From a virus (lineage: Duplodnaviria > Caudoviricetes), in the IMG/VR virus record IMGVR_UViG_3300005739_000402, positions 1 to 35,502 of that record: 35,502 nt of DNA, one strand, 5' to 3'. A program made the position numbers and the translations under genes. Under the pieces are notes generated by a model. That model worked only from the letters and a program-made list of their open reading frames with translations. It was not told where the DNA came from and did no database searches. Numbering within the stretch: position 1 is the stretch's first letter; every line of letters begins with the position of its first letter. Positions 2,192 through 31,250 of this stretch are shown piece after piece.

Positions 2192-4414
2192 ATGCAGGGG
2201 ACACCACTCTTACCGCCATTGTTCGGCACAGCGGCCCTGAAGGATACTGGGACGACGGAGGGCACTGTACCACTCAGGACGGTCAATGGTGCCTTGGTCG
2301 GCCCGATGGCCTGGTCTGAGCTAACCAATACTCCCACGACCTTAAGCGGCTACGGGATTACTGACGCGGCTACCAGTGCCCAGGGCAGTTTGGCGGATAC
2401 CGCTGTGCAGCCCGGAGACCTTGCCACGGTTGCGACCACGGGCAGTTACACCGACCTGCTGAATAAACCCACCATCACAACTGGCACCGTTGAGTCAGTA
2501 GGCTTGGCCCTGCCATCGCAGTTCACCGTCACTGGATCGCCTGTCACCAGTACAGGGACGCTAACCGCTGCCTGGGCTTCCCAGACCCAAGCCCATGTTC
2601 TAGCCGCGCCTAGCGACGGCAATGGTACGCCTACATTTCGAGCGTTGGTGGCGACCGATATTCCGACACTTAACCAAAACACGACCGGGACAGCGGCCAA
2701 TGTAACGGGTATCGTTGCAATAGCTAACGGTGGAACCGGGACAAACACAGCACAGCTAGCTATCAATACCTTGGTTGGAGCCGTTACCAGTGGTCAATAC
2801 CTTCGAGGCGATGGCACCAATGTGGTGATGTCTGCCATCCAGGCGGCGGACATCCCGACACTGAATCAAAACACGACCGGGACGGCTAGCAACGTCACGG
2901 GCATTGTCGCTGTAGCTAACGGGGGGACGGGGACAAGCACAGCACAGCTAGCTATCAATGCTTTGGCCGGAGCCGTTACCAGTGGGCAGTACCTTCGAGG
3001 CGATGGCACCAATGTGGTGATGTCTGCCATCCAAGCGACGGACATTCCAACCCTTAACCAAAACACGACCGGGACAGCGGCTAACGTCACCGGGGTTGTG
3101 GCCCTTGCCAATGGTGGAACCGGGGCGACGACGGCCCAGTTAGCCATCAATGCCTTGGCTGGGGCTGTCACCAGTGGTCAATACTTGCGGGGCAATGGCA
3201 CGAATGTGGTGATGTCTGCCATTCAGGCAGCGGATGTGCCGACCCTCAACCAAAACACAACCGGGACGGCTAGCAATGTTACCGGGGTTGTGGCCCTTGC
3301 CAATGGTGGGACGGGTGCAACGACTGACGCAGATGCCCGAACCAATTTGGGGCTAGCCATTGGCACGAATGTCCAAGCCTATGACGCAGACCTTGCAGCC
3401 CTTGCGGCACTAACGACCACGGGCTTGATTGACCGCACAGGCGATGGCACGGCCACAACTCGCGCAACTGGAGCGACTGGACTGAGTGTGCTGGCGGCAG
3501 TGAATGAAGCGGAGGCACGGACAGCCATTGGTGTCGGTGCCATTACAAACCGTAACCGCCTAATCAATGGTGGCATGGCCATCGACCAGCGCAATGTTGG
3601 CAATGCCCAAACCATTACAGCCGGGGCCGCATTGGCCTATACGGTAGATCGTTGGTACGCCTATTGCACTGGGGCAAACGTCACCGGGCAACGGGTGCAG
3701 GGTGCTACGGCTGGGCGTTTTCGCTATCAATTTACAGGTGCGGCTAGCGTTACCGCTATTGGTTTTGGTCAGCGGATTGAACAACTCAACAGCGCTGATT
3801 TAGCAGGAACCACCGCAACCCTATCGGTAGACCTCGCCAACAGCCTACTGACTTCCGTAACCTGGACGGCCTATTATGCCGCCACAACAGATACGTTTGG
3901 GACACTGGCATCCCCCACTCGCACCCAAATTGCAACGGGGACGTTTACCGTCAATAGCACCGTTACCCGATACTCCACTCAAATTGCAATTCCAATTGCG
4001 GCGGTAACGGGCATTGAAATTGTGTTCACGGTTGGGGCACAAACATCAGGAACATGGATAATTGGCAATGTCCAGTTGGAGCCGGGTAGTGTTGCTACTC
4101 TTTTTGAAAGTAGGTTGCACGGGACTGAATTGGCATTGTGCCAAAGGTATACATTTATAGGTGGAAATGGCCATCTTGTATCAGGATACCATGCACCTGA
4201 TGGAATAGGTAACTTTATATACCTTCAACCTTTTTATTACAATACTACCATGAGAGCTAATCCTACAGTCTCTTTCTCCCATGCAGGTGCATTTGTTATG
4301 GTATCATTTAATTCATTTCCTTTTGGTTTTTTATTCTATAGCTACAAAGCTTATACTGAGGGTTTTCAAAAGTCTACTCTGACTTCTAACATTTTTGCGA
4401 TAGCAGAACTGTAA
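2192..4414 (+). CDS. tail fibre protein with internal repeats
   Basis: PTTLSGYGITD motif, NGGTG repeats, NRLING...VDRW carbohydrate-binding-like region, and ELALCQRY...AEL terminal module. Confidence 0.85.
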   Translation: MQGTPLLPPLFGTAALKDTGTTEGTVPLRTVNGALVGPMAWSELTNTPTTLSGYGITDAATSAQGSLADTAVQPGDLATVATTGSYTDLLNKPTITTGTVESVGLALPSQFTVTGSPVTSTGTLTAAWASQTQAHVLAAPSDGNGTPTFRALVATDIPTLNQNTTGTAANVTGIVAIANGGTGTNTAQLAINTLVGAVTSGQYLRGDGTNVVMSAIQAADIPTLNQNTTGTASNVTGIVAVANGGTGTSTAQLAINALAGAVTSGQYLRGDGTNVVMSAIQATDIPTLNQNTTGTAANVTGVVALANGGTGATTAQLAINALAGAVTSGQYLRGNGTNVVMSAIQAADVPTLNQNTTGTASNVTGVVALANGGTGATTDADARTNLGLAIGTNVQAYDADLAALAALTTTGLIDRTGDGTATTRATGATGLSVLAAVNEAEARTAIGVGAITNRNRLINGGMAIDQRNVGNAQTITAGAALAYTVDRWYAYCTGANVTGQRVQGATAGRFRYQFTGAASVTAIGFGQRIEQLNSADLAGTTATLSVDLANSLLTSVTWTAYYAATTDTFGTLASPTRTQIATGTFTVNSTVTRYSTQIAIPIAAVTGIEIVFTVGAQTSGTWIIGNVQLEPGSVATLFESRLHGTELALCQRYTFIGGNGHLVSGYHAPDGIGNFIYLQPFYYNTTMRANPTVSFSHAGAFVMVSFNSFPFGFLFYSYKAYTEGFQKSTLTSNIFAIAEL
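2657..3330 (+). repeat. about 3.5 tandem 192-bp (64-aa) coding repeats in the tail fibre
   Basis: DIPTLNQNTTGTAxNVTG...GQYLRGxGTNVVMSAIQA recurs with a 192-bp period (~2672, 2864, 3056, 3248). Confidence 0.95.
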
Positions 4415-7903: not shown

Positions 7904-7999
7904 GTAGCAGGTAGGAGATACGAGCGGCCCATGACTGCGTGCCGTGTGCCCCTAGCCTAACCCATCGGGCTAAAATTGAGCTGTAGCGTCGTGCCACCC

Positions 8000-8623
8000 A
8001 TGCCTAAAGACAAAGGTTATTTGATTCCTGTTCATGAATGTTTTGGGCCAACTGTCCAGGGAGAAGGTTTCTGGTCTGGATCAATTGTCAGCTTTATTAG
8101 GTTATCCGGATGCCCTGTGGGATGTCCATGGTGTGATACGGGGTATGCCGATGGAGGCGCGTCTCTTCCACGAGAAAAACGCTCTATTCATTCACTTATT
8201 GCCAACACTCAGAATCGGGTTGTTATTTCAGGCGGTGAGCCGTTTATTCATGCCAACATCTCTATACTGGTTGAGCATTTGATCGCTGCTGGCAAAAACG
8301 TACACATTGAAACGTCTGGCTCTTTCTATAAGCCCGTCAATGATTTAGCTTGGATAACCCTTAGTCCTAAAACTCATGTCAACAAGGATTACCCTGTTCA
8401 ACCCGATTTATGGGATCGTGCCAATGAAATCAAGCTTGTTATCGCAGATGGCACCGAGGTCGATTTCTATGCTCAATGGCTTAACCAATTCTCCGGACAT
8501 ATTTTCCTACAGCCTGAATATAGCCAGGGGGACAGCTCCCTAAAAAATACATTAGAATTATTGTATGCCAACCCTCGGTTCAGACTTTCGCTGCAAACCC
8601 ATAAAATGATTGGGGTTCTATGA
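8000..8623 (+). CDS. queE: 7-carboxy-7-deazaguanine synthase (radical SAM)
   Basis: TVQGEG, FIRLSGCPVGCPWCDT (CxxxCxxC), SGGEP, IETSG, LSPK and RLSLQTHK motifs. Confidence 0.95.
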   Translation: MPKDKGYLIPVHECFGPTVQGEGFWSGSIVSFIRLSGCPVGCPWCDTGYADGGASLPREKRSIHSLIANTQNRVVISGGEPFIHANISILVEHLIAAGKNVHIETSGSFYKPVNDLAWITLSPKTHVNKDYPVQPDLWDRANEIKLVIADGTEVDFYAQWLNQFSGHIFLQPEYSQGDSSLKNTLELLYANPRFRLSLQTHKMIGVL

Positions 8624-9021
8624 CCTGGATTCTGTCTAAGGAATTTACCTTTGAAGCTTCACATCAACTGCCACACCATGATGGCAAATGTGCCAGACTG
8701 CATGGCCACAGTTGGCGTGGAATGGTTTATGTGTCTGGCGATGTCCTGCATTCTGACGGGGCAAAGCAAGGGATGGTGATGGATTATGCCGACATCAAGA
8801 GACATCTAAAGCCCTTGGTCGAAAATCATCTTGATCATTATCATCTCAACGATTCTCTAAAATTGGAGACACCCACCAGTGAAGCCGTCGCCCAATGGAT
8901 CTACAACCAACTCAAGAGCGTTATCCCTAACCTCGTTTGCGTCCGGATTGACGAAACCTGTACCAGTCGATGCCTCTATACTGAACTCGCTGACTTCAGT
9001 CATGCGATCCTTATGGGGTGA
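8620..9021 (+). CDS. queD: 6-carboxy-5,6,7,8-tetrahydropterin synthase
   Basis: FEASHQL, CARLHGHS, LDHYHLN and PTSE motifs. Confidence 0.95.
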   Translation: MTWILSKEFTFEASHQLPHHDGKCARLHGHSWRGMVYVSGDVLHSDGAKQGMVMDYADIKRHLKPLVENHLDHYHLNDSLKLETPTSEAVAQWIYNQLKSVIPNLVCVRIDETCTSRCLYTELADFSHAILMG

Positions 9022-9517
9022 CTTGCTAGACTCGGAAGGGATGGAGGATACCCCTAGGCGAGTATTAAAGCATTGGGCCACAATCACCCATGGATTGAAC
9101 CAAGACCCGCAAGAACCCCTAGCCAAGACGTTTCCATGTGACCATGATGAAATCGTGGTCATTAAAGACATCCCGTTTAATTCTTTGTGTGAGCATCATT
9201 TATTACCGTTCTACGGTGTCGCTCACGTTGCCTACATCCCTAGCGGGCGGGTTGTTGGGCTTAGTAAGATTCCCCGGTGCTTAGATATCCTAGCTTCTCG
9301 CCCACAGTTACAAGAGCGACTGACCGACCAACTAGCCGAAGCCATTAACACCGCTTTGCAGCCTGTCGGGGTGGCTGTCGTGCTTTCGGCAGAGCATACC
9401 TGCATGACCACTAGGGGAGTTCTAAAGCCTGGTTCTGCCACCGTTACCAGTTGCCTTCTAGGTGTGTTTCGGGAAGACTCCGCGGCCCGCGCTGAAGTGT
9501 TGGGGTTGATGAAATGA
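9002..9517 (+). CDS. folE: GTP cyclohydrolase I
   Basis: TPRRV, SLCEHHLLPF, GLSKIPR, QLQERLT and HTCMTTRG motifs. Start uncertain (frame open from 8879). Confidence 0.95.
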   Translation: MRSLWGDLLDSEGMEDTPRRVLKHWATITHGLNQDPQEPLAKTFPCDHDEIVVIKDIPFNSLCEHHLLPFYGVAHVAYIPSGRVVGLSKIPRCLDILASRPQLQERLTDQLAEAINTALQPVGVAVVLSAEHTCMTTRGVLKPGSATVTSCLLGVFREDSAARAEVLGLMK

Positions 9518-9698
9518 GGATACATTTAATCATCCCAACCAAGGGGGGGGGGATCAACCTATCTTCACTAGCGATGCTTTGATAGAAGAAAATTTTGAGA
9601 ACAGCTTGTTTAGTTTCGCTTACGCTAAATATGAACGTTATCAACATTATCTTTGGGATGAACTAATCAATCATGTCGAAAGCACTCGTAATTCTTAG
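9514..9698 (+). pseudogene. frameshifted stand-alone copy of the DpdA-like N-terminal module (G10 tract at 9543-9552)
   Basis: MRIHLIIPTKGG(G) in one frame continues as DQPIF...NSLFSFAYAKYERYQHYLWDEL in another. It is homologous to the repeats in 10368..11453; G8 or G11 would restore the frame. Confidence 0.75.
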
Positions 9699-10371
9699 CG
9701 GTGGTCAAGATTCCACGACTTGCCTTGCTGTAGCCAAGCAACGGTTCACCGAAGTTCATGCTGTGACGTTTGAATATGGACAGAAACACGCCATAGAACT
9801 TGAGTCGGCCCGCCGTGTCGCTGAGTTGATGGAGGTAAATTCCCACGAGGTCATCACTCTAGGGCGTATCCTGGCTGGTACATCGCCATTGGTTAGCGAT
9901 ACCCCTCTAGGGAAATACAACAGCCCTGCGGAGCTTCCAGGGGGCATAGAACCGACGTTTGTTCCGGGTCGTAACTTGCTGTTTCTCACCTTGGCGGCAA
10001 ACCGCGCTGCTGTGCTAGGCGTCAATCACCTATTCACTGGGCTATGTGAGGAAGACTTTGGAGGCTACCCGGATTGTCGTCAAGTCTTTGTCGACGCCAT
10101 GGCCTCGGCTTTGTCTGAAGGCATTTGGGGCCAACCTGGCGTATTCAAAATCCACACCCCATTGATGCACCTCAACAAAGCCGATTCGGTTCGATTGGCA
10201 GTAGATGTTCTGGGTGATCAGTTTGAATCTGTCATGGCAGAAACCCATACTTGCTACGATGGCGTTAAAGGTGGCTGTGGTCAATGTCATGCCTGCCATC
10301 TTCGAGATCGGGGCTTCCGTGAGGCGGGTATCAACGACCCCATCTGGAAATACCGCAAGGTGACAGCGTGA
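9673..10371 (+). CDS. queC: 7-cyano-7-deazaguanine synthase
   Basis: SGGQDSTT, YGQKH, FVPGRN, YPDCR and TCY...CGQCHAC motifs. Confidence 0.95.
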   Translation: MSKALVILSGGQDSTTCLAVAKQRFTEVHAVTFEYGQKHAIELESARRVAELMEVNSHEVITLGRILAGTSPLVSDTPLGKYNSPAELPGGIEPTFVPGRNLLFLTLAANRAAVLGVNHLFTGLCEEDFGGYPDCRQVFVDAMASALSEGIWGQPGVFKIHTPLMHLNKADSVRLAVDVLGDQFESVMAETHTCYDGVKGGCGQCHACHLRDRGFREAGINDPIWKYRKVTA

Positions 10372-10790
10372 GGATTCATCTAGCAGACCATAGCCCTGAA
10401 CGTGGTCAGCGCCTTTGTTTGCTGCAAGAAAAATGGGGGGGGTGGCTACATTCTTATGCCTATGCGGGAGTTCAAGGATGGGACGTTACGGAATCCTATT
10501 GGGAGTATTTAGTGAGGATTCATTTTGCTGACGCATCTACAGACAGAGGGCAGCTTCACTTGCGAGCAAGTGAAGCTGCCCCGTCCTCTTTGTTTAGCTA
10601 TGCATATAAAGATTCTCGTCACTTCTATGAACCCTTTGAACGCTACTGGGATGAACTTGTGAGGATACACTTTGCGGGGCAAGGGCCGTTTACTATCGAC
10701 TGCAAGGAGAGAGAGAACGTGCAAAATTATTTAACGACATATGCCTATCCTAAAGAAAACGATGCTCATTCATCTTTATGGAGTCGTGTT
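10368..10790 (+). repeat. three tandem ~48-aa N-terminal modules
   Basis: GTGAGGAT(T/A)CA starts at 10368, 10512 and 10659; each encodes RIH(L/F)A...(S/T)YAY...W. Confidence 0.85.
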
Positions 10791-11453
10791 GACCTCCGCC
10801 CCCGTGTAATCATCGACTCTGGCGCATTTACGGCATGGTCAACGGGGAAGACCATACGCCCCCAAGACTATGCAGAATGGGCGCTTGATTTTGATAAGCG
10901 CTGGCGTCATAAAATGGCGTCGCTTGAATTTATGAACCTTGATGTGATTGGCGATCAAGATGCTACTTGGGTTAATCAAGGTATCCTTGAGGGGCTAGGC
11001 ATGAAACCGCTCCCCATCGTCACCTTTGGCGTTGGCCTCAATCACCTCGACCGCGCATTAGAGAATTATGATTACATTGCCCTAGGTGGTCTTGTTCCCT
11101 ATACCAGGGACAAGGCCAAGCTTAAATCTTGGCTTGACGCTTGCTTTTCTCGTGTCATGGCATACCGAAAAAAGACAGGCATCTTGCGGCGGATTCACTT
11201 GTTAGGCATTACGACGGATTGGGTTCTAAAACGATATCCTTGCTTTTCTAGCGACTCATCCTCCTGGGTTTCGTGTCTACGTTTTGGCGGTGGCGACGCA
11301 GCCGGGATAAAGCAACTTCCTCGATACAAAGAATCGGACGCGGCCATGGCGGCGACTATTCATACCTTAAGGGCAGAGATTCGGAAATACAAAAAGATGC
11401 AAGACGAAGCGACAAAATTATGGGCCATGAGGGGGATCGCATTCGATGACTAA
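10368..11453 (+). CDS. DpdA-like / TGT-fold guanine transglycosylase, probably acting on DNA
   Basis: IIDSGAF, NLDVIGD, IALGG, IHLLG and SSDSSSW motifs; adjacent to preQ0 synthesis genes. Confidence 0.8.
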   Translation: MRIHLADHSPERGQRLCLLQEKWGGWLHSYAYAGVQGWDVTESYWEYLVRIHFADASTDRGQLHLRASEAAPSSLFSYAYKDSRHFYEPFERYWDELVRIHFAGQGPFTIDCKERENVQNYLTTYAYPKENDAHSSLWSRVDLRPRVIIDSGAFTAWSTGKTIRPQDYAEWALDFDKRWRHKMASLEFMNLDVIGDQDATWVNQGILEGLGMKPLPIVTFGVGLNHLDRALENYDYIALGGLVPYTRDKAKLKSWLDACFSRVMAYRKKTGILRRIHLLGITTDWVLKRYPCFSSDSSSWVSCLRFGGGDAAGIKQLPRYKESDAAMAATIHTLRAEIRKYKKMQDEATKLWAMRGIAFDD

Positions 11454-12105
11454 TTACAAAATAGAACGCGGTGTTGCTATCCCCAAGAGTAAGCTACACC
11501 CTAATCCCTGGAACCCAAATCACATGAAACCTCGCCAGCAAGCCGCTGTTGAGGAATCAATCAAGGCGTATGGGCAAATCCTAGAACTCCTAGTTCGGCC
11601 CCATCCTGACATAAAAGACGAATACCAAATCATTGATGGAGAACATCGGTTTAACGTTTTGCCTGATACGGTCTATTGCAACGTGATTCATGGCTTGCCC
11701 GATGCCGAAGCTAAGAAGCTGACCATCGTCATGAATGAAACCCGTGGAGCCGCAGACAAAATAGAACTAGCCAAACTGCTGGCCGAGCTTAGTACCGAGA
11801 TTGACGATCTTTCTACCGCTTTGCCCTGGGATGATGTCGAGCTAGACGAACTGATTAAGCTCGCGGATGTTGACTGGGACAGCTTTACCGATGCATTTGA
11901 AGAAGACGAACCACAAGCCAATGAAGAAGACCCTACTGACGATTTTGTGAGGCTATCGGTAGCAGTTCCAAGAGAGGCTATGGATATTGTGAACCAAGCC
12001 AAAGATTTAATTGAAGAACAAGGAGCATTGCATAAAGATGCCGCCCTAGCCTGGGGACAGGTTCTAGAGCGGCTGGCGGCTGATTACTTAGCGATGCCTT
12101 CCTGA
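11446..12105 (+). CDS. ParB/Srx-like N-terminal domain protein
   Basis: LHPNPWNPN, SIKAYG and YQIIDGEHR motifs. Confidence 0.85.
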   Translation: MTNYKIERGVAIPKSKLHPNPWNPNHMKPRQQAAVEESIKAYGQILELLVRPHPDIKDEYQIIDGEHRFNVLPDTVYCNVIHGLPDAEAKKLTIVMNETRGAADKIELAKLLAELSTEIDDLSTALPWDDVELDELIKLADVDWDSFTDAFEEDEPQANEEDPTDDFVRLSVAVPREAMDIVNQAKDLIEEQGALHKDAALAWGQVLERLAADYLAMPS

Positions 12106-14276: not shown

Positions 14277-17200
14277 ATGGCCGATGATGCCCTTGCGACA
14301 ACCCAGCGTCTAGACTCTGTTCTGTCTGCCCTAAATCATTCCCTGATGCGTAATGGCGCGACGGGGATGGGGACTAGCCTTGATCCGTACACCCAGGTAG
14401 AGGTGAACTATGGGCGGTTGCTGAATGAGCAGCAGCTACGGGCATTGTACCGAGGGTCTTGGTTTATCAGGCGAGTGGTGGATCTGTTGCCCCAGGATAT
14501 GACCAAGGCGGGGGTAGAGGTGTTGTTGCACGATGGTAGCAATACCCGAATTGTGAACAAGGCCATGCAGGTTTACCACGATGGGGGCCAGCGCCAGAAC
14601 CCCTACGAAAAGCGGATGGGGTGTAATGAGGCTAGACGCCTAGCGTTAACCTATGCCCGATGGTTTGGGATGGGATACATTGTGTTGCGGGTCAACGGTG
14701 GCGAGAATCCCGCTAAGCCCCTAACCAAGGTGAAAAGTTTTGAGGGTGTCAGTGTCCTTGACCGCTACAGCCTACGCCCTGCCATTGGCACCATTGATGT
14801 TCATAACCCAGAGTTTTACCAGGTGTCGCGCCACGATGCCCCCGGTGGGTTTGGGGGTGAACTACCAGTGATGCAGCGCATCCATGCGAGTCGGGTATTG
14901 CCCTACAAAGGGGCGATGATCCATCCCTACGATATTCAGCTAGAAGGGGACGGTGGGCACGATAGCGTAGTGCAGCAAGTCTATGAGGCGTTCACCCGTC
15001 ACTTCATGGCCAAGGATGCCATTAGCAAAGGGCTGGATAGTTACAGCTTGTTTAAGGTGGCAATCTCTGGATTGTCTACGCTGTTGCAATCTCCGAACGG
15101 AACGCAGACCCTAACCGAGTATCTGAACACGGTGGCTCAACAGATGAGCCTACACCGCATCATCGTGCAGGATACCGAGGCCAGTAAGAGTGAGTTTCAG
15201 GAGCGGTCGTTTGCGGGGGTTGCTGAGAACTTCAAGTTTTTTGTAGATGACCTGATTGCCGCCACGGGCTACCCCCATTACAAAATCTATGGCAGCGTGG
15301 GCAAGGCGGGTTTAGCTGATAGCGGTGGTGCTGAATCGAGGGCATGGGCCGAAACGGTGCGGGCCTACCAGTCGATGGAGCTAGCCGACAATGATCGCAT
15401 CTTGTTTCACGCCATCTTTGAGGCATTGGGGCGGGTGCCGAAGCAGTGGGAGGTGGTCTATCCCAGCATCTATTCGGCAACCCCTGAGGAAGAGGCTACC
15501 CTGGCCAAAACCCAAGCCGACACCCTAACCGCCCTGACCCGTGAAGGGGTGATTACCACTCGCCAAGCCTACCAAGCCCTCGCCACGGGGCAACCCCTAG
15601 AGAACGTATTGAAGCCCCTAGATGAAGCCGAGGTGCTGACCCCCGTAGAGGAAGAAGCAGCGCAGGGGCCAAGCGCTGAAGAGGAATTGACAGCATTACT
15701 CGGTGGTGCCTCCGCAGAACCCGCCACCCCAGAAGCGCCCTCCGAGGAAATGGAAGCGGTTGAGGATGTACCCGAAGAGGTGGCGGCGGAAACCACACCA
15801 GAGGCCGTAGAAGCCCCCATGGAGGTCGATGAAGAACCGGAAGAGGAAGCCATTGAGGTTGCGGCTGAAACGGTGCCAGAAATAGAAGAGCCAGAAATAG
15901 AAGAGCCTGAAGAGGAAGAGGAACAGGAAGAACCCCTGAGCGCTGAGGATGAAATGGCGGCGCTGTTGGCGGTGGAGGAACAGCAGACGGATGCTGCCGA
16001 CACCTTTACCCCACCCAAAGCGGCCCAACGCAATGCCCAACGGGTCTTAGAATGGCGCGAACGGTACGGCGATGAAGTCAAGGGCATGACGGCCGTGGGG
16101 TGGACACGCGCTCGACAGTTGGCCAGTGGTGAACCAATTAGCCTTGACACCGTAAAGCGCATGGCGCAATTTAATCGTCATCGTCAGAACCGTACAGTTG
16201 CCCCGGAGAACAAGGGCACCCCCTGGAAAGATGCAGGCCATGTGGCATGGCTGGGCTGGGGTGGCACCGAAGGGGTTGATTGGGCTATCAACGTAAGTGG
16301 TCGAACGGATATTGATAATCTGTGGGGCTACCACATCCCCCGGCATTCTCAGGCCCGCCGAACCTTGAATATAGTGCTGGCCGACACGGTGCGGATTGAC
16401 AACCTAGACGAGGACTTGTTAGCGATGCTTAGTCAGGAAACGGCGCGGGAATTGGTGACGGTTGCCGCCACAGAACTCTATGCCCAACGGGGGCAAACCG
16501 TTGATGTTGCTGTTGATTCGGTGCATGTGGATGACGGGGCGCTGTTGGTAATGCTACGCCTAGACGGTGACGACGGCCACGGTGATGCCCTTGTGACCTA
16601 CCGGGATGGCCTGTGGCAAGAAGACCGGGTAGACATTGATGAACTACTGGAAAGCTTGCTGGGCTGGCGTGTAGATGCGCCCAAGGGTAGCAAGGGGGGC
16701 CGTAAGAAGCGCACCGAGAAACCGAAGTGTACCAAAGGTCGTAGCTGTGGGATGAGTTGTATTCCACAGAATCGCAAATGTAAATCCGATCTTAGTCCCG
16801 CTGCTGATGTGGTGGCTAAGTCGGTGGTGAGTAGTGGTGGGACAGGTGGGGGCAAGAGCAAGGGGCAAGGGGGGAACCAAGACCCATTTAGTCCACAGGT
16901 GAACCCGATCAATATCCCGGATGCGCCAAAGACGTACGTCATCCCTACTGCCCCAACCCCGGACATGAAGCTTCTGGGTAAGGGCGCTTTTGGAGCCGTT
17001 TATCTTGATGAGAAAAATAATGTTGCGTTGAAATATGTTACCGGAGAAAACCCCGCACTAGCTCAGTTTTATTCGACAGATGATGAAGTTCGGATGATGC
17101 AAAAGGCAAGTGACGCGGGAGTTGGCCCTAGGCTTTTTGGAACATCTCAAGACGCGGATGGAAACCCGATCATTGCAATGGAGTACCTGAAAGGGTTCAT

Positions 17201-17597
17201 TCCATTGAACGGAACAGACCCTCAAGCAAAATACGAAGACCTTAATAGACTCTCCGAGAAAAAACAGGCAAGGGTTATTGTGAACGTGCTGAAGGCTATA
17301 GAACAAATGTCTCAGGCGGGCATTATTCACAATGATGCTCACACAGGAAACATCATGTTTAACCCAAGGACTGGCCAGGTTAAAATGGTAGATATGGGAT
17401 TAGCGTCAGAGGGTTCAGCGATTGATACCGATGTAAGGCGGTTTATCATGGCGATAACAGCCCCCGGTTCGGCATGGAAATCAAGCTGGGCTATGAGTTC
17501 GCCTATGGAAAGGTTCCCACGAATTATGAATGAGCCAGATTGGGACGGAGATATTACCCCTTTAATTAAGCAATATGAGGATATGGCAAATGGATGA
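14277..17597 (+). CDS. portal protein (DUF1073-like) fused to an acidic linker, accessory domains, Cys4 motif and C-terminal protein kinase
   Basis: Follows terL; LY..SW..RRVVD..PQDM, ARWFG and RIHASRV portal motifs; C-terminal LGKGAFGAVY, VALK, HNDAHTGNIM and DMG kinase motifs. Confidence 0.85.
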   Translation: MADDALATTQRLDSVLSALNHSLMRNGATGMGTSLDPYTQVEVNYGRLLNEQQLRALYRGSWFIRRVVDLLPQDMTKAGVEVLLHDGSNTRIVNKAMQVYHDGGQRQNPYEKRMGCNEARRLALTYARWFGMGYIVLRVNGGENPAKPLTKVKSFEGVSVLDRYSLRPAIGTIDVHNPEFYQVSRHDAPGGFGGELPVMQRIHASRVLPYKGAMIHPYDIQLEGDGGHDSVVQQVYEAFTRHFMAKDAISKGLDSYSLFKVAISGLSTLLQSPNGTQTLTEYLNTVAQQMSLHRIIVQDTEASKSEFQERSFAGVAENFKFFVDDLIAATGYPHYKIYGSVGKAGLADSGGAESRAWAETVRAYQSMELADNDRILFHAIFEALGRVPKQWEVVYPSIYSATPEEEATLAKTQADTLTALTREGVITTRQAYQALATGQPLENVLKPLDEAEVLTPVEEEAAQGPSAEEELTALLGGASAEPATPEAPSEEMEAVEDVPEEVAAETTPEAVEAPMEVDEEPEEEAIEVAAETVPEIEEPEIEEPEEEEEQEEPLSAEDEMAALLAVEEQQTDAADTFTPPKAAQRNAQRVLEWRERYGDEVKGMTAVGWTRARQLASGEPISLDTVKRMAQFNRHRQNRTVAPENKGTPWKDAGHVAWLGWGGTEGVDWAINVSGRTDIDNLWGYHIPRHSQARRTLNIVLADTVRIDNLDEDLLAMLSQETARELVTVAATELYAQRGQTVDVAVDSVHVDDGALLVMLRLDGDDGHGDALVTYRDGLWQEDRVDIDELLESLLGWRVDAPKGSKGGRKKRTEKPKCTKGRSCGMSCIPQNRKCKSDLSPAADVVAKSVVSSGGTGGGKSKGQGGNQDPFSPQVNPINIPDAPKTYVIPTAPTPDMKLLGKGAFGAVYLDEKNNVALKYVTGENPALAQFYSTDDEVRMMQKASDAGVGPRLFGTSQDADGNPIIAMEYLKGFIPLNGTDPQAKYEDLNRLSEKKQARVIVNVLKAIEQMSQAGIIHNDAHTGNIMFNPRTGQVKMVDMGLASEGSAIDTDVRRFIMAITAPGSAWKSSWAMSSPMERFPRIMNEPDWDGDITPLIKQYEDMANG

Positions 17598-17786: not shown

Positions 17787-19049
17787 ATGGCAAACCCAGT
17801 CCTTGACAGAATCCCCGTAGAGAAACGCATCGAGCTAGTCATCCGTAGTGTTTACGAAGACGCTGGGGGTGGCCCTGGCGGAACCGATGTTATCCGCGAC
17901 AGTGTGCGCGATGTCGAAATTGGCACACCCCCCAACGGGTGGACAGCGTTAGCCGATCTGGATAGTGCTGATGGACGGCTTACCATCAAAGCTGAGTATG
18001 ACGGCCAAAGCTACAGCGATGTGGTGGTGGTCGCTAATGGCAAACCCGTGACGGTGACGGATAGTGAGGATGACGGGATAGAGGATTACATTGACGCAGA
18101 GGCAGACCCAGAAGACTTGGTATTGTTGGCCGCTAGGGTAGTTTTTGAGGCGGGCGATTGGAAAATTCTAGGGATAAAGAATCTTGAGATTGATCCGGGG
18201 GAAGGGCTAACATTCCAGGTTGTTGTTGAGCAAGACGGAACGGGAAAGCGCCTCCTTCAACAGGTTGAGTACAACGCTATCACCAATGAATGGGTAGATA
18301 GTGTCATCGAAGGTCGTACTGATGTGTGGCGGAGTGATACACCTAGAAAAGGTAGCAAGCGAGGCAAGCGAACCGAAGCCCCTAAATGTAAAGCAGGTAA
18401 AAAATGCGGGATGACCTGCATCAAAATGGAGCGCGACTGCCATCAAAATCCTACAGGTGTTGTTGAAGAAGCCTTAAAGACAGCGGTAGGAACAAAATCA
18501 AAAGGGGGAGCGGCAAGTAAGCGGCCAGTTATCCCATTACCTTCCGGGGTTAAACGTAAGGATAATGGTGATGAAACTACCTATACCTTTGAGGCAGGCG
18601 ATGACATTTTAACGTTTACGATTAAGCCTGAACCAAGGCTAGCCGCCGCAAATGGTACGCGAATGGTTGACTTTGAGGTGAACTATTCCTTGGCCGCTGG
18701 CGAATTAATTGACAACAATAACGCTGTCGCTATTGCATCCAAGGCAAGGGCTATCATGCAGCACGACGCATCCCAAAGGCCAAACGGTTTTAGGTATAGC
18801 ACCCTTGCTTTTGCCAATGATGATAGGGGATCTGCCAGGGCTTTACTTTATTCAAAAGAAGGGTTCTCAACTCCCGGAGATTTACAGCTAGAAGGATCTA
18901 AGGGGATTCAATATGCCGTGGTTAAGAATGGCCGAATGGTGCCCTCTGACGCAAACGGAAAAGCAATTACTCCAGCACGTCAACGGAAAGCGATAAAGGC
19001 TTTAATTGAAGATGCACGAAAAGAGAGAAACCAGCGGAGGTCAGCATGA
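17787..19049 (+). CDS. Cys4-motif head-module protein with possible GNAT-like C-terminal domain
   Basis: Two copies of the shared N-domain; KCKAGKKCGMTCIKMERDC; C-terminal RALLYSKEGF. Confidence 0.7.
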   Translation: MANPVLDRIPVEKRIELVIRSVYEDAGGGPGGTDVIRDSVRDVEIGTPPNGWTALADLDSADGRLTIKAEYDGQSYSDVVVVANGKPVTVTDSEDDGIEDYIDAEADPEDLVLLAARVVFEAGDWKILGIKNLEIDPGEGLTFQVVVEQDGTGKRLLQQVEYNAITNEWVDSVIEGRTDVWRSDTPRKGSKRGKRTEAPKCKAGKKCGMTCIKMERDCHQNPTGVVEEALKTAVGTKSKGGAASKRPVIPLPSGVKRKDNGDETTYTFEAGDDILTFTIKPEPRLAAANGTRMVDFEVNYSLAAGELIDNNNAVAIASKARAIMQHDASQRPNGFRYSTLAFANDDRGSARALLYSKEGFSTPGDLQLEGSKGIQYAVVKNGRMVPSDANGKAITPARQRKAIKALIEDARKERNQRRSA

Positions 19050-19305: not shown

Positions 19306-20475
19306 TTGGTACTGCAAGCGGCAAAGGTCATCTACGGGGGGTTTGAGAACTGGGAAGTGCGGGGCATTCGCAACCTACGGTTAGGGGTGCCCTTGGGCGG
19401 GCTGACGGTGGAGGTGGTGACGGTTTCGGACGAGGGCGAGGTGCTGCGCCTGGAGGGGGTCTGGGATGGGACGCTGTGGACAGACACCCTAATCACTGAG
19501 AGCCGCGAAGATGCGGCAAAGAAAGGCGGCAAGGGTAAGCGCAAGGGGCGCACCGAGAAACCTAAATGCACCAAGGGCCGTGTCTGCGGGATGACCTGCA
19601 TTCGCCGATATAAAGCCAACGGAGAACCGACTGGTTGCCGTTTTGACCCGCCCCCGGTGATTGCAGAAGCGTTGAACCAAGCGGCGGCAATGGGTGGAAA
19701 AGGCGGTGGCGGTGATACGCCCACTAGCCTACCCAAAGACCATGTCGTGACCACCAACAAGCGCATCACAGCAGCGCGACTGGACAAAGCTTTGAATGCC
19801 ATTGATAGCCCTGGGGCCAAAGAACGGGTGAGGATGTTCCGTGCCTTTGTGGCAAAGACGGGGGTGCAAGCGGTGTTTGCCGACCCAGACGCGTCGTTGA
19901 CCGATCACCTGGCTGTGGTAGAGCGAGGGCTAAAAGACCAGCGCTATGCGGCGGAGGATGGTGGCCTACTGCGAAATACCAAGGCCGACCCAACAGCGGC
20001 GGGGTACACCACGTTTGTCTGGAACCATGTGGTGATTACGAGCGATTCGAGGGGAAGGGATGGGGCGTTTGTAGCATCTTCAGAAAAGCTGAGGCAAGCA
20101 GCGGATCGCATCTTTGAGGCCAATGCCGAGGACGAGTTAACGCGGGACGTTATGGCGTTCCCTTTTAGTGTTAGCGGATCGGTAAGGGATCGAGACTCTA
20201 GCGATATGATGACCTACATTCACGAAATGGGGCACCAAGTTCATGCCAAGGCAGGGCTTCCGGCTGTGCCCCTGACTATTAAGGGATCGGCTACCAACTA
20301 TGGTGCTGTCAATGAAGAGGAATGGTTTGCTGAGCACTTTGGCCTATGGATGTTGGATGGCCAAAGATACGAGCAGCTAGACCCAGCGGGGGCACAGTTT
20401 ATTCGAGATAGCTTAGTTAGAGCCACCGAAAACCCAGTGAGCGTTGATGAGTTGATCGCAAGGAGGAGAGCATGA
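19306..20475 (+). CDS. Cys4-motif head-module protein with zincin (HExxH) metallopeptidase domain
   Basis: KCTKGRVCGMTCI...C; YIHEMGHQVH and YGAVNEEEWFAEHF. Confidence 0.75.
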   Translation: MVLQAAKVIYGGFENWEVRGIRNLRLGVPLGGLTVEVVTVSDEGEVLRLEGVWDGTLWTDTLITESREDAAKKGGKGKRKGRTEKPKCTKGRVCGMTCIRRYKANGEPTGCRFDPPPVIAEALNQAAAMGGKGGGGDTPTSLPKDHVVTTNKRITAARLDKALNAIDSPGAKERVRMFRAFVAKTGVQAVFADPDASLTDHLAVVERGLKDQRYAAEDGGLLRNTKADPTAAGYTTFVWNHVVITSDSRGRDGAFVASSEKLRQAADRIFEANAEDELTRDVMAFPFSVSGSVRDRDSSDMMTYIHEMGHQVHAKAGLPAVPLTIKGSATNYGAVNEEEWFAEHFGLWMLDGQRYEQLDPAGAQFIRDSLVRATENPVSVDELIARRRA

Positions 20476-21884: not shown

Positions 21885-22928
21885 TTGGGGCAGATGCTAC
21901 GTGATAGCGCTGTGACTGTTTCCCTTGATTACGCTGAACCCTTAACGCTAGATACCAAGGCCGATGATGAGCGCTTGGTGTTGTTGGCCGTTAAAAGCAT
22001 TTATGAGCAAAGCAACTGGGAAGTTTTAGGCATTCGTAACCTGGTGGTGACGCTAGGGGAAAGCCTCTCGGTTGAGGTGGTGATTGAGAACGAAGACACC
22101 AAAGACCGGGTGATTGTCGCTGGGGACTATGACGCAGCGGCTAACCAATGGACAGACCGTTTGTTGTCTGAGTCTAAGGCCGATGAAGCCCTCGACCTTG
22201 ACGCATGGCGCATGGATAAGGGCAAGGGTAGCCGGGGAAAGCGGACAACGGCCCCAAAGTGTAATAAGGGCAGACCTTGCGGGATGTCTTGCATTGCCGG
22301 GAACCGGAACTGTCGAGTAAACCCCACGGGCGCGGCTGAGGAAGCGCTGAAGACGGTGGTTGGTGGTGGGGGCGGGGCGGGTAGCTCAAGCCGAGCGCCA
22401 ATCTTGGTTGACTTTACTTATCACACAAAGCCGACCAAAACCGTTTTTAACGACTTGCGGGACACGTGGCAAGACAACTATAAGGATAATTTTTGGTCAG
22501 ACGATAAAAACAAATCAAATCAAATAAAGGTTACTCAGAGAATACTGGCCGAACCAAATAAAGATGGACGCCTAAGAGAGATTAGAGATAGCGAAGGAAA
22601 TCTTCAGGCAGCAGCAATCATAACGCCATCGATCAATAGAATTAGAAGTCCTAATGACCATCTTCATGTTGACTGGTTAGCTACAGCACCGTGGAACTTG
22701 CCAGATAGTACAGACCATAGAAAGGTATCTGGAGCAGGAAGCGCAATGATAAGAGAGATTATCCAAGAAGCTAAAACAAATCTAGATAAATATCCTGGTG
22801 GAGTCCAGCTTGAATCGCTGCAAGCTGCTGTTCCTTTTTACAAAAAACTCGGATTTGATGTGCAAACCGAATTAAACAGCGTGTCTTATATGGTGCTAAG
22901 CGCAGACAAGATAAGGGGGATGAGATGA
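21885..22928 (+). CDS. Cys4-motif head-module protein with GNAT acetyltransferase domain
   Basis: KCNKGRPCGMSCIAGNRNC; LHVDWLATAPWN, SGAGSAMI and AVPFYKKLGF. Confidence 0.8.
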   Translation: MGQMLRDSAVTVSLDYAEPLTLDTKADDERLVLLAVKSIYEQSNWEVLGIRNLVVTLGESLSVEVVIENEDTKDRVIVAGDYDAAANQWTDRLLSESKADEALDLDAWRMDKGKGSRGKRTTAPKCNKGRPCGMSCIAGNRNCRVNPTGAAEEALKTVVGGGGGAGSSSRAPILVDFTYHTKPTKTVFNDLRDTWQDNYKDNFWSDDKNKSNQIKVTQRILAEPNKDGRLREIRDSEGNLQAAAIITPSINRIRSPNDHLHVDWLATAPWNLPDSTDHRKVSGAGSAMIREIIQEAKTNLDKYPGGVQLESLQAAVPFYKKLGFDVQTELNSVSYMVLSADKIRGMR

Positions 22929-27617: not shown

Positions 27618-27646
27618 GCCCTCGGTTAATTCGAGGGCTTTTTCTT
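27618..27646 (+). terminator. intrinsic terminator
   Basis: GCCCTCG...CGAGGGC followed by TTTTTCTT. Confidence 0.8.
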
Positions 27647-27726
27647 GTGTGCCAGTAGGGTGTACCACTTATTTTCCAAAATTCTTGCCTTACCCCCTTG
27701 TAAAGTGCAGTCAAATGAGGCATTAT
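27647..27726 (+). promoter_or_regulatory. promoter cassette copy 1
   Basis: GTGTGCCAGT box, then TTGTAA-N17-CATTAT with conserved spacer GTGCAGTCAAATGAGG. Confidence 0.7.
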
Positions 27727-27759
27727 AAAGGGGTAAGCAATTACGCCGAGGACAAACCG

Positions 27760-28680: not shown

Positions 28681-28740
28681 AGCCCCAACCGGAAAGGATT
28701 GCTTGATGGTTGCCCCGGCTACGGTTAGGGGCTTTTTCTT

Positions 28741-28799
28741 GTGTGCCAGTAGAATGTGACACTAATTGCTTGACATTGTGCAGTCAAGTGAGGCATTAT
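28741..28799 (+). promoter_or_regulatory. promoter cassette copy 2
   Basis: GTGTGCCAGT box, TTGACA-N18-CATTAT, same spacer; preceded by a terminator-like GGGGCTTTTTCTT. Confidence 0.75.
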
Positions 28800-28834
28800 G
28801 AAGGGGTAAGCAAAACACACCGAGGGCAAACCCC

Positions 28835-29944: not shown

Positions 29945-30324
29945 CTTGTCCTACCACGAAAGGATCGAAAAAAAGGTGGGGTACTCAAAGCCTTACGTAG
30001 CAATGGTTTAAGGCGGTAGTACGTATGTCTTCCCAAGGAAGGAAAATTGCTTCCGTGGGGGACTCTAATCCTTATATATCAGTATCTTTCCCTTTGGAAA
30101 GTGGCTTTCCCCACCAAAATTAGGGGGGTAGAGATTTTTTGTACGCTATAAAAAAAACAGCCTTTTGAAAATCCCAACTGTCACATACCCCCAAAAAATG
30201 TCGATTTTTTGTGGAACAAGCGACCCCGCCTTTCGGTGGGAACGTGGTAGTACAAATGTAACGCCTTGCCCTGTAAGGCTTAGAGTTCCCCACCTTTTGT
30301 AATTTGCTTCCGTGGTAGGACAGG
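29945..30324. repeat. ~65-bp imperfect inverted repeats in an AT-rich non-coding region
   Basis: CTTGTCCTACCACGAAAG..AAAAGGTGGGGTACTCAAAGCCTTAC (29945-) versus GTAAGGCTTAGAGTTCCCCACCTTTT..CTTCCGTGGTAGGACAGG (-30324). Confidence 0.75.
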
Positions 30325-30911: not shown

Positions 30912-31165
30912 TAAGAAATCCCCGCTCAGGTGCTCCACTAGGGGCCATGGCGGGGATCCGAGTTTGGTGGGTGCTCTCCCAGGGCGCTTTTTACCAGGTT
31001 CCCAACTGGGGTCAGTTGTAACGGCACTCCGACCGGCAGGCCTCTTTGTTGATAACCCAGGCGCTGCATCACTGGGGCTTCACCGGACAGGGCGGGCTAG
31101 ATTCATCACCTCCCCCCTACCTTTCGCTAACGTCGGCGGCGGGGTTCCGATCTCCTGTCCTCCAC
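30912..31165 (-). ncRNA. putative structured non-coding RNA (~250 nt)
   Basis: Lies between promoter copy 3 and a terminator-like ATCCCCGC/GCGGGGAT stem; no credible ORF; stems GGACAGG/CCTGTCC, CCCAG/CTGGG and GGTGG/CCACC. Confidence 0.5.
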
Positions 31166-31171
31166 CCCTAT

Positions 31172-31250
31172 ATAATGCCCCATTTGACCGCACGTGTCAA
31201 GTGGTTTTGAAAAATTTTTCCAAAAAAAGTGTCACACGGCACTGGCACAC
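31172..31250 (-). promoter_or_regulatory. promoter cassette copy 3
   Basis: Minus strand: GTGTGCCAGT box, TTGACA-N17-CATTAT, spacer GTGCGGTCAAATGGGG. Confidence 0.75.

Follow-up and report, generated by a model that had tools for sequence, protein, structure and literature searches.

The open reading frame at positions 10368-11453 of the window (the whole stretch of DNA that was analysed, which is a 35,502-base linear virus record) is predicted from its sequence to encode a DpdA1-type transglycosylase within a phage queE-queD-folE-queC cluster. The arrangement of this gene is real and richer than first noted, in that the DpdA1 enzyme has a variable, probably switchable set of predicted first quarters of its barrel. 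The 361-amino acid frame consists of three tandem modules of about 48 residues followed by one DSGAF core (Table 1). It is highly probable, on the evidence of the structural models, that the modules are interchangeable barrel quarters. The fuller reading, in which these first quarters are supplied from nested starts or mini-genes, are switched by slippage, and set the DNA context that is modified, is considered probable, if only modestly so. A more far-reaching version is put forward tentatively: the first barrel quarter would be a plug-in specificity subunit, provided in cis by nested starts and in trans by 60-aa mini-genes, and slippage and recombination would give rise to programmable, population-variable 7-deazaguanine motifs. 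In addition to the preQ0 gene cluster, profile scans of the window, which is approximately 48% complete as a virus record, identified genes for a tail fibre, terminase, portal, protease and capsid.

Table 1. Coordinates of the modules, the core, the G runs and the neighbouring genes in the window
Feature	Position	Strand	Evidence and remarks
queE-like radical SAM gene (preQ0 pathway)	7976..8623	+	PHROG 2076, E 5e-33; NCBIfam QueE models below their cut-offs
queD	8620..9021	+	TIGR03367, 102 bits (cut-off 89)
folE, GTP cyclohydrolase I	8879..9517	+	TIGR00063, 211 bits, above cut-off; true start possibly further downstream
Module 0, free-standing mini-gene for a predicted barrel quarter	9514..9698	+	Module HMM, 21 bits, iE 8e-8
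G10 run in module 0	9543..9552	+	Run-length scan
queC, preQ0 synthase	9673..10371	+	TIGR00364, 202 bits (cut-off 150); stop overlaps module 1 GTG
Module 1, 48 aa, predicted quarter-barrel copy, GTG start	10368..10511	+	Module HMM, 34 bits
G8 run in module 1, in frame	10435..10442	+	Run-length scan
Module 2, 49 aa, in-frame GTG	10512..10658	+	Module HMM, 41 bits; GGGAG at 10501-10505
Module 3 and linker, in-frame GTG	10659..10802	+	Module HMM, 38 bits; GGGATG at 10648-10653
Catalytic core, predicted barrel strands 3-8	10803..11453	+	D150, S151, F154, D192, G240-G241, H277, D296
ParB-like gene	11446..12105	+	Overlaps dpdA stop; 3' of the core in many related loci

The frame is matched by PHROG 887 from residue 98 onward and also by PHROG 7068, and module 3 together with the core is 33% identical to the DpdA of phage 9g over residues 19-210, with 221 phage records matched. 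The three active-site aspartates and the Ser/Phe/Gly-Gly pocket of phage DpdA1 are present in the core, where D150 (encoded at 10815), D192, D296, S151, F154 and G240-G241 align with the 9g pocket (9g aspartates D72, D114 and D215). His196 of 9g, which PMC6884629 describes as the residue telling DpdA1 from DpdA2 and as absent in DpdA2, aligns to H277 and is invariant in alignments A2 and A4. The gene is also a phage gene beside preQ0 synthesis genes, as is characteristic of phage DpdA1. By analogy with 9g, CAjan and iggy, the enzyme likely swaps guanine in phage DNA for preQ0, a product suggested by the dPreQ0 that phages with the same gene set carry: folE-queD-queE-queC is reported to yield dPreQ0 in CAjan, iggy and Rosebush (PMC10484667). 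When the residue numbers of CAjan DpdA were mapped onto the frame through 9g (constant offset of 9), all of the pocket residues fell in the core. The only one that differs is His132, replaced here by Thr219 (codon 11022-11024), and this position is Thr in all 20 rows of alignment A1. The CAjan His132 is a pocket residue from a homology model and is not stated to be family-defining; Thr in its place might have altered base preference clade-wide. Since the mapped base pocket lies wholly in the core, a switching of base specificity by the modules, which had been proposed earlier alongside sequence specificity, is unlikely. No match to the frame was found in Pfam, NCBIfam or PADLOC, and a search of solved structures by sequence returned nothing relevant.

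The module HMM recovered all three of the modules described in the earlier note, each with GTGAGGAT, ahead of the single DSGAF core. The count of three was incomplete, as following up the G10 run led to a fourth, free-standing module (module 0) that had been overlooked. The conservation of internal start codons across the family had also escaped notice. Module 0 begins with an ATG that overlaps the stop of folE and runs at its end into the start of queC. In the window record module 0 is out of frame past the G run and stops at 9580-9582; intact 60-aa forms occur in three relatives (P0264-P0266), and the post-run part is identical to P0266 at 45 of 48 residues. The modules begin M-R-I-H, and free modules end in a tail without strand 3. 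Up to three free mini-genes, each with a similar tail at its end, stand in tandem between folE and queC in relatives (L033).

Three models support the earlier suggestion that each module corresponds to the first two strands and helices (beta1-alpha1-beta2-alpha2) of the TGT/DpdA TIM barrel. The first model, of module 3 plus core, was built from a 20-row alignment, with residues 1-27 at pLDDT below 50; its alignment with TGTs begins at residue 1, where the TGT barrels also start (Z 12.8, rmsd 4.0, 224 aligned), and Foldseek gave no match for it at E 0.001. The full-length model (138-row alignment, pLDDT 86, pTM 0.81) is a TGT-like (beta/alpha)8 barrel, with Z 19.0 to 1IQ8 (rmsd 3.4, 249 aligned), Z 17.8 between its residues 47-356 and chain 2-413 of the DpdA structure 7UI4 (rmsd 3.1, 239 aligned), and Z 14.2 to the next unrelated barrel. 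Module 2 of this model has strands at 50-54 and 73-77 and helices at 62-68 and 84-97 (pLDDT 88-96), compared to pLDDT of 73-78 in module 3 and mostly below 50 in module 1, and the model suggests that the non-adjacent module 2, rather than the core-adjacent module 3, can close the barrel. Because row coverage of the alignment was uneven (96% of rows over the first strand of module 2, 94% over the second strand of module 3 and approximately 5% over module 1), the choice of module 2 is partly alignment-driven and the model is uninformative on module 1. In the third model, the free module P0264, from another genome, was docked onto the core cut at residue 142, which is here an artificial construct and not a natural product. 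The score was 0.89, versus 0.00 for the best of three controls, with at least 92% contact agreement between runs and partner pLDDT of at least 75. Of 157 solved complexes, 116 pass the docking mark, as do 2 of 215 mismatched pairs. In the docked pair, residues 2-4 of the module pair with core strand 8 and residues 29-33 with strand 3. As this is a split of a known fold, the pass may reflect likeness to solved one-chain barrels.

One module copy suffices, as had been supposed, because relatives of each of the three module types in the window are found as the only module of their protein (P0110, P0068 and P0023); P0110, the best single-module relative of module 1, is 48% identical to it over 46 residues. 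Of 104 single-module proteins, 95 have beta1 starting at Met1. The idea that a free N-terminus is required for a module was nevertheless set aside, since 9g DpdA has a 9-residue extension and the full-length model seats module 2 with module 1 still attached in front of it.

The first homologue search returned 1,264 relatives, the best 120 of which were used, and a profile search added its best 150, which partly overlapped. Among the 263 proteins gathered, 255 contained the core motif and 233 a module match. Of these 233 proteins, 121 had one module, 56 had two, 25 had three, 23 had four and eight had five, so the copy number is not fixed. No form longer than 632 aa was found, which is weak evidence. 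The modules are recurring types whose order varies among relatives, with type A usually first and type D last, and the loop after beta1 is conserved within a module type and different between types. Among 116 cores, 52 pairs were at least 90% identical, and 12 of these 52 had the same array (truncated gene calls inflate the array differences); module series sit on cores up to 98-100% identical. The core of P0002, for example, is 98% identical to that of the window, its first module is identical and its second near-identical, and three different modules replace module 3. A contig of run X2 has 246 other bases in place of module 3 and run X6 has 140, and other modules also take its place in run X1, the assembly graph of which branches at 10388 and at 10636-10666. 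Among the viral contigs searched, from which records near the window may have been withheld, none with module 1 or its G run was found.

Branching at the junctions of the X1 graph, the lack in that graph of the window's module 2-module 3 link, and the broken modules of some relatives would all be expected if the array were neutral duplication debris or a chimeric assembly. This explanation is very improbable, given that the exact protein of the window is present on four contigs, that P0002 and runs X1 and X2 also join module 1 to module 2, that 112 of the 233 relatives contain arrays, and that dN/dS is well below 1. Median dN/dS was 0.16 for first modules (5 of 21 pairs usable), 0.21 and 0.28 for middle modules (27 of 36 and 15 of 15), 0.16 for last modules (10 of 36), 0.05 for cores (8 of 55) and 0.07 for free modules (1 of 6), with the remaining pairs saturated, including most of those for the window's own types (0 of 3 and 1 of 3 usable). 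By this measure, the modules are under purifying selection in homologues.

The same selection bears on the possibility that the core-adjacent module alone is used, the others being a store of cassettes moved by recombination, while the G runs and starts set the translation of queC and dpdA through coupling. Short stretches of identical DNA are found at the module junctions, which are also branch points in assembly graphs; translation of an out-of-frame module 0 ends approximately 90 nt before queC and could be polar, and a core without any module is not encoded, all of which would fit such a store. Nevertheless, it is improbable, as purifying selection acts on first and middle modules just as on the last ones and the full-length model seats a non-adjacent module in the barrel. 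In addition, seven intact free modules were tested and none clusters with the 322 fused modules at 55% identity, a separation unlike that expected of donors and one that fits peptides better than donor cassettes. Whether the free modules form one clade was also considered, and the tree did not resolve them.

Several relatives depart further from the window. In an alternative contig of run X1, 515 core bases (window 10939-11455) are replaced by 1,349, or about one extra gene, and the loose end of that contig reads as a different core type. Two dpdA-like cores also occur at five other loci (L010, L024, L025, L044 and L053). Five distant proteins (P0203, P0255, P0186, P0222 and P0131) repeat only the first strand and its loop, approximately 13-28 aa and mostly Met-initiated, suggesting independent origins of a smaller swap unit.

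The G8 run of module 1 behaves as the earlier note had described: with one G fewer, the frame ends at TAG 10510-10512, overlapping the GTG of module 2. With one G more, it stops at 10529-10531. The run is not remarkable by itself, as an iid model predicts approximately one G run of at least 8 per window and a Markov-3 model predicts 3.4 G/C runs. It is the position of the G runs, and not their length, that carries the signal. The only two G/C runs of at least 8 in the window both lie inside modules, and across 20 related loci, chosen for their length and with duplicates left out, 13 of the 17 runs of at least 7 fall in modules that cover 4.7% of 200,940 bases (P 1e-14, which overstates the case because the loci are related). 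The G7 allele predicted for module 1 was found in a related contig of run X2; assembled contigs otherwise have G8 at this position (window, X1 and X9) or G12 (X6, where the evidence is weak, with a depth of 4.6 near the contig end). The run at 9543 is G10 in the window and G8 in run X1, where the module is in frame. Run-length alleles that shift the frame are therefore present among close relatives, as in simple-repeat phase variation, judging from contigs and not from reads.

Of seven proteins with the module 1 motif, three are in frame and four start out of frame just before the motif (for three of the four, judged from the protein only). Among 14 free modules from nine loci, with duplicates dropped, 12 have a G/C run of at least 7, and nine are out of frame and five in frame; both free modules of locus L004 are in frame (G8 and C8), and both are out of frame in its close relative L009 (G7 and C9). 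Some of this variation is decay or assembly error, because breaks also occur away from the runs and in last modules (a stop in L009, frameshifts in L010 and L040, two shifts in L014 and a stop in L030). L078 was flagged as a possible further break. The frame states of the free modules, together with their tail lacking strand 3, could also mean that the free and upstream modules act as decoys, jamming the barrel to turn modification off, for example sparing host DNA in lysogeny; the Chlorogloeopsis chromosome contains one homologue, presumably as part of a prophage. It is nonetheless improbable that the modules serve this end: for each of the three fused types in the window, some intact enzyme has a relative of that type as its sole module (a comparison that covers fused and not free types), and an inhibitor would not need many types.

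Internal modules begin with M, V or L in 196 of 199 cases and with I or F in none, with Ile at position 3 in 130; for this count, 41 matches without the first-strand pattern were dropped, and the HMM had been seeded from modules starting with M, V or L. At the DNA level, the 58 internal starts found with 51 cores represent 37 unique junctions, 34 of which have ATG, GTG or TTG (ATG 25, GTG 6, TTG 3, ACG 1, ATT 1 and AGT 1, the last being a register slip two codons ahead of an ATG). Valine at junctions is GTG in six of six cases compared to 22% of 421 core Val codons, and leucine is TTG in three of three compared to 13% of 819 core Leu codons, although the junctions are related and their starts are therefore not independent events. 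Shine-Dalgarno-like pairing is also stronger at junctions (mean -4.4 kcal/mol, n=37) than before in-frame ATG, GTG or TTG codons in cores (-2.7 kcal/mol, n=383), a signal that can arise from conserved Trp-Glu/Asp codons. At two loci (L038 and L014), breaks in the upstream modules leave an internal start as the sole entry. No conserved in-frame start was found before strand 3, with scattered starts in 15 of 44 linkers and none in that of the window, so a module-less core isoform was rejected for this clade. A free module must therefore dislodge one that is tethered, at an energetic cost. No RNA datasets holding the locus were listed among public runs.

These observations can be combined into a mechanism for the preferred reading of the modules as switchable first quarters that set the DNA context. 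The FolE, QueD, QueE and QueC genes adjoin dpdA and the catalytic residues are kept; by analogy with 9g, CAjan and iggy, the enzyme would insert preQ0. Strands 3-8 are predicted to form a three-quarter barrel with a gap that accepts one module, beta1 lying on core beta8 and beta2 on core beta3. The in-frame start of each module would give nested isoforms (M1-M2-M3-core, M2-M3-core and M3-core), in which an upstream or free module would displace those behind it and later modules would take their turn in the shorter forms. The common order, with type A first and type D last, suggests an affinity ladder, in which upstream and free modules would win the gap over those that follow, and the weaker modules would obtain a barrel of their own through the nested starts. 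G-run slippage may toggle modules 0 and 1, while the own start of module 2 would keep enzyme production going. Modules are seen to be shuffled over the same core, and the exchange probably proceeds by recombination at the short conserved junctions. Finally, the type-specific loop after beta1 might lie on the DNA-binding face and alter the target motif, and the phage population would then differ in the restriction sites that are masked. Residues of the TGT beta1 loop are presumably linked to neighbouring bases, an assumption that was not used as evidence, and a literature search found no paper making that link. The proposed connection to sequence choice draws instead on the type-specific loops, on the active-site face and on motif differences among known DpdAs. 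The DpdA active site is at the C-terminal face, which bears the beta1 and beta2 loop insertions (PMC10164549), and the known motifs differ, with GA in one case versus GA/GGC in another (PMC10484667, PMC7544227). According to the CAjan paper, the reading of sequence context by DpdA awaits biochemical and structural work (PMC7544227).

The structural, start-codon and selection evidence fits equally well with barrel quarters that are exchangeable but tune activity, stability, timing or partner binding and not the DNA motif; partners could involve the adjacent ParB-like protein, or the modules could allow escape from a host factor recognising DpdA. In many loci the next gene after the core is ParB-like, and the modelled DNA contacts of Salmonella DpdA include Ins8, which is far from the module (PMC10164549). 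Such tuning in place of motif choice is unlikely, however, because many types with type-specific loops, kept in combinations, resemble a recognition repertoire more than dosage control, and the avoidance of restriction sites in the window points toward selection on DNA motifs. Restriction-like sites are strongly avoided across the window: GGACC/GGTCC has 0 copies compared to approximately 43 expected, CCCGGG, CTCGAG, CGATCG and GGCGCC each have 0 in the whole window, and six-base palindromes are at 0.53 of expectation.

Multispecific cytosine methyltransferases of Bacillus phages (SPR, phi3T, rho11 and H2) offer the nearest working analogy, one that would operate alike without belonging to the same class. 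Their modules sit in an internal variable region, outside the catalytic fold, and they are not known to have nested starts, free copies or slippage switches. They also differ in fold and chemistry from the window enzyme, with its TGT-like barrel and its PHROG 887 and 7068 matches. In these methyltransferases, tandem target-recognising modules give several motifs (PMC8936443). Phasevarions and target-domain exchange in restriction-modification systems similarly combine repeat-based on/off switching with swaps of recognition domains (PMC8936443), whereas the window system is on the phage side, its switched unit would be a barrel quarter, and the enzyme would stay expressed. Compared to the DpdA1 enzymes of Enterobacteria phage 9g, CAjan and Pseudomonas phage iggy (PMC6884629, PMC7544227, PMC10484667), the window keeps the catalytic aspartates, His196 and the gene set, but 9g DpdA has a single first quarter, as opposed to three fused copies here, each with a start codon of its own, plus a free fourth copy and slippery runs. 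The DpdA of Salmonella Montevideo (7UI4) and the TGT 1IQ8 share the TIM barrel with the window enzyme, as well as an Asp general acid and an Asp nucleophile (PMC10164549). Unlike the window enzyme, Salmonella DpdA requires DpdB and is part of a bacterial restriction-modification cluster (PMC10164549), and its barrel is one fixed chain instead of a modular one. Cap10 of type IV CBASS (9NTN; bioRxiv 10.1101/2025.04.06.647259) also pairs a TGT-like barrel (Z 16.9) with a QueC-like partner, and is described there as binding a deazaguanylated CD-NTase N-terminal Gly2; in the window, QueC is canonical and the modules begin M-R-I-H. The PADLOC search gave no match for the frame, and no match to the CD-NTase family was found in the 36 proteins scanned from this partial record. 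The literature search found no account of repeated, free or switchable DpdA quarters, within a coverage that was thin for subscription papers and supplements.

Natural module series on near-identical cores are ready-made swaps for locating the DpdA context determinant, and perhaps for programming base insertion. The exchange of a TIM-barrel quarter in vivo, if true, would surprise structural biologists, and a phase-variable DNA disguise, if true, would amount to bet-hedging for phages of restriction-rich hosts.

The host of the window phage is likely a cyanobacterium, as suggested by the named relatives, which come from Chlorogloeopsis fritschii PCC 6912, Dolichospermum bins and an unnamed cyanobacterium; two further bins with relatives are labelled Verrucomicrobiota and Gammaproteobacteria. 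The Chlorogloeopsis copy (L022) is available from a cultured strain. Among 401 sampled genomes from the phylum of genome G001, a match was found in G001 only. A terminase gene lies downstream of the dpdA frame, as does the ParB-like gene. In related loci, approximately 940 bases interrupt folE (L010, 2102-3766), and folE is fragmentary or undetected in L003, L004 and L009 (before 4433), L031 and L033. Elsewhere in the window, an FHA-domain gene lies at 423-1061, and the 1,106-aa portal protein (14277-17597) carries, fused at its C-terminus, a domain that resembles a protein kinase (Pfam Pkinase, E 2e-12, residues 897-1046). A 42-nt Cys-coding repeat is common to four head-region ORFs from portal to protease (16683-16764, 18381-18422, 19522-19603 and 22254-22295), one of which also gives a weak GNAT match. 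The tail fibre gene (2651-3320) contains three repeats with 192-nt spacing that are approximately 80% identical. A non-coding repeat, possibly regulatory, is present at 27635-27740, 28729-28813 and 31164-31250 as two direct copies and one inverted copy, and a 64-nt inverted pair is located at 29947-30010 and 30259-30322.
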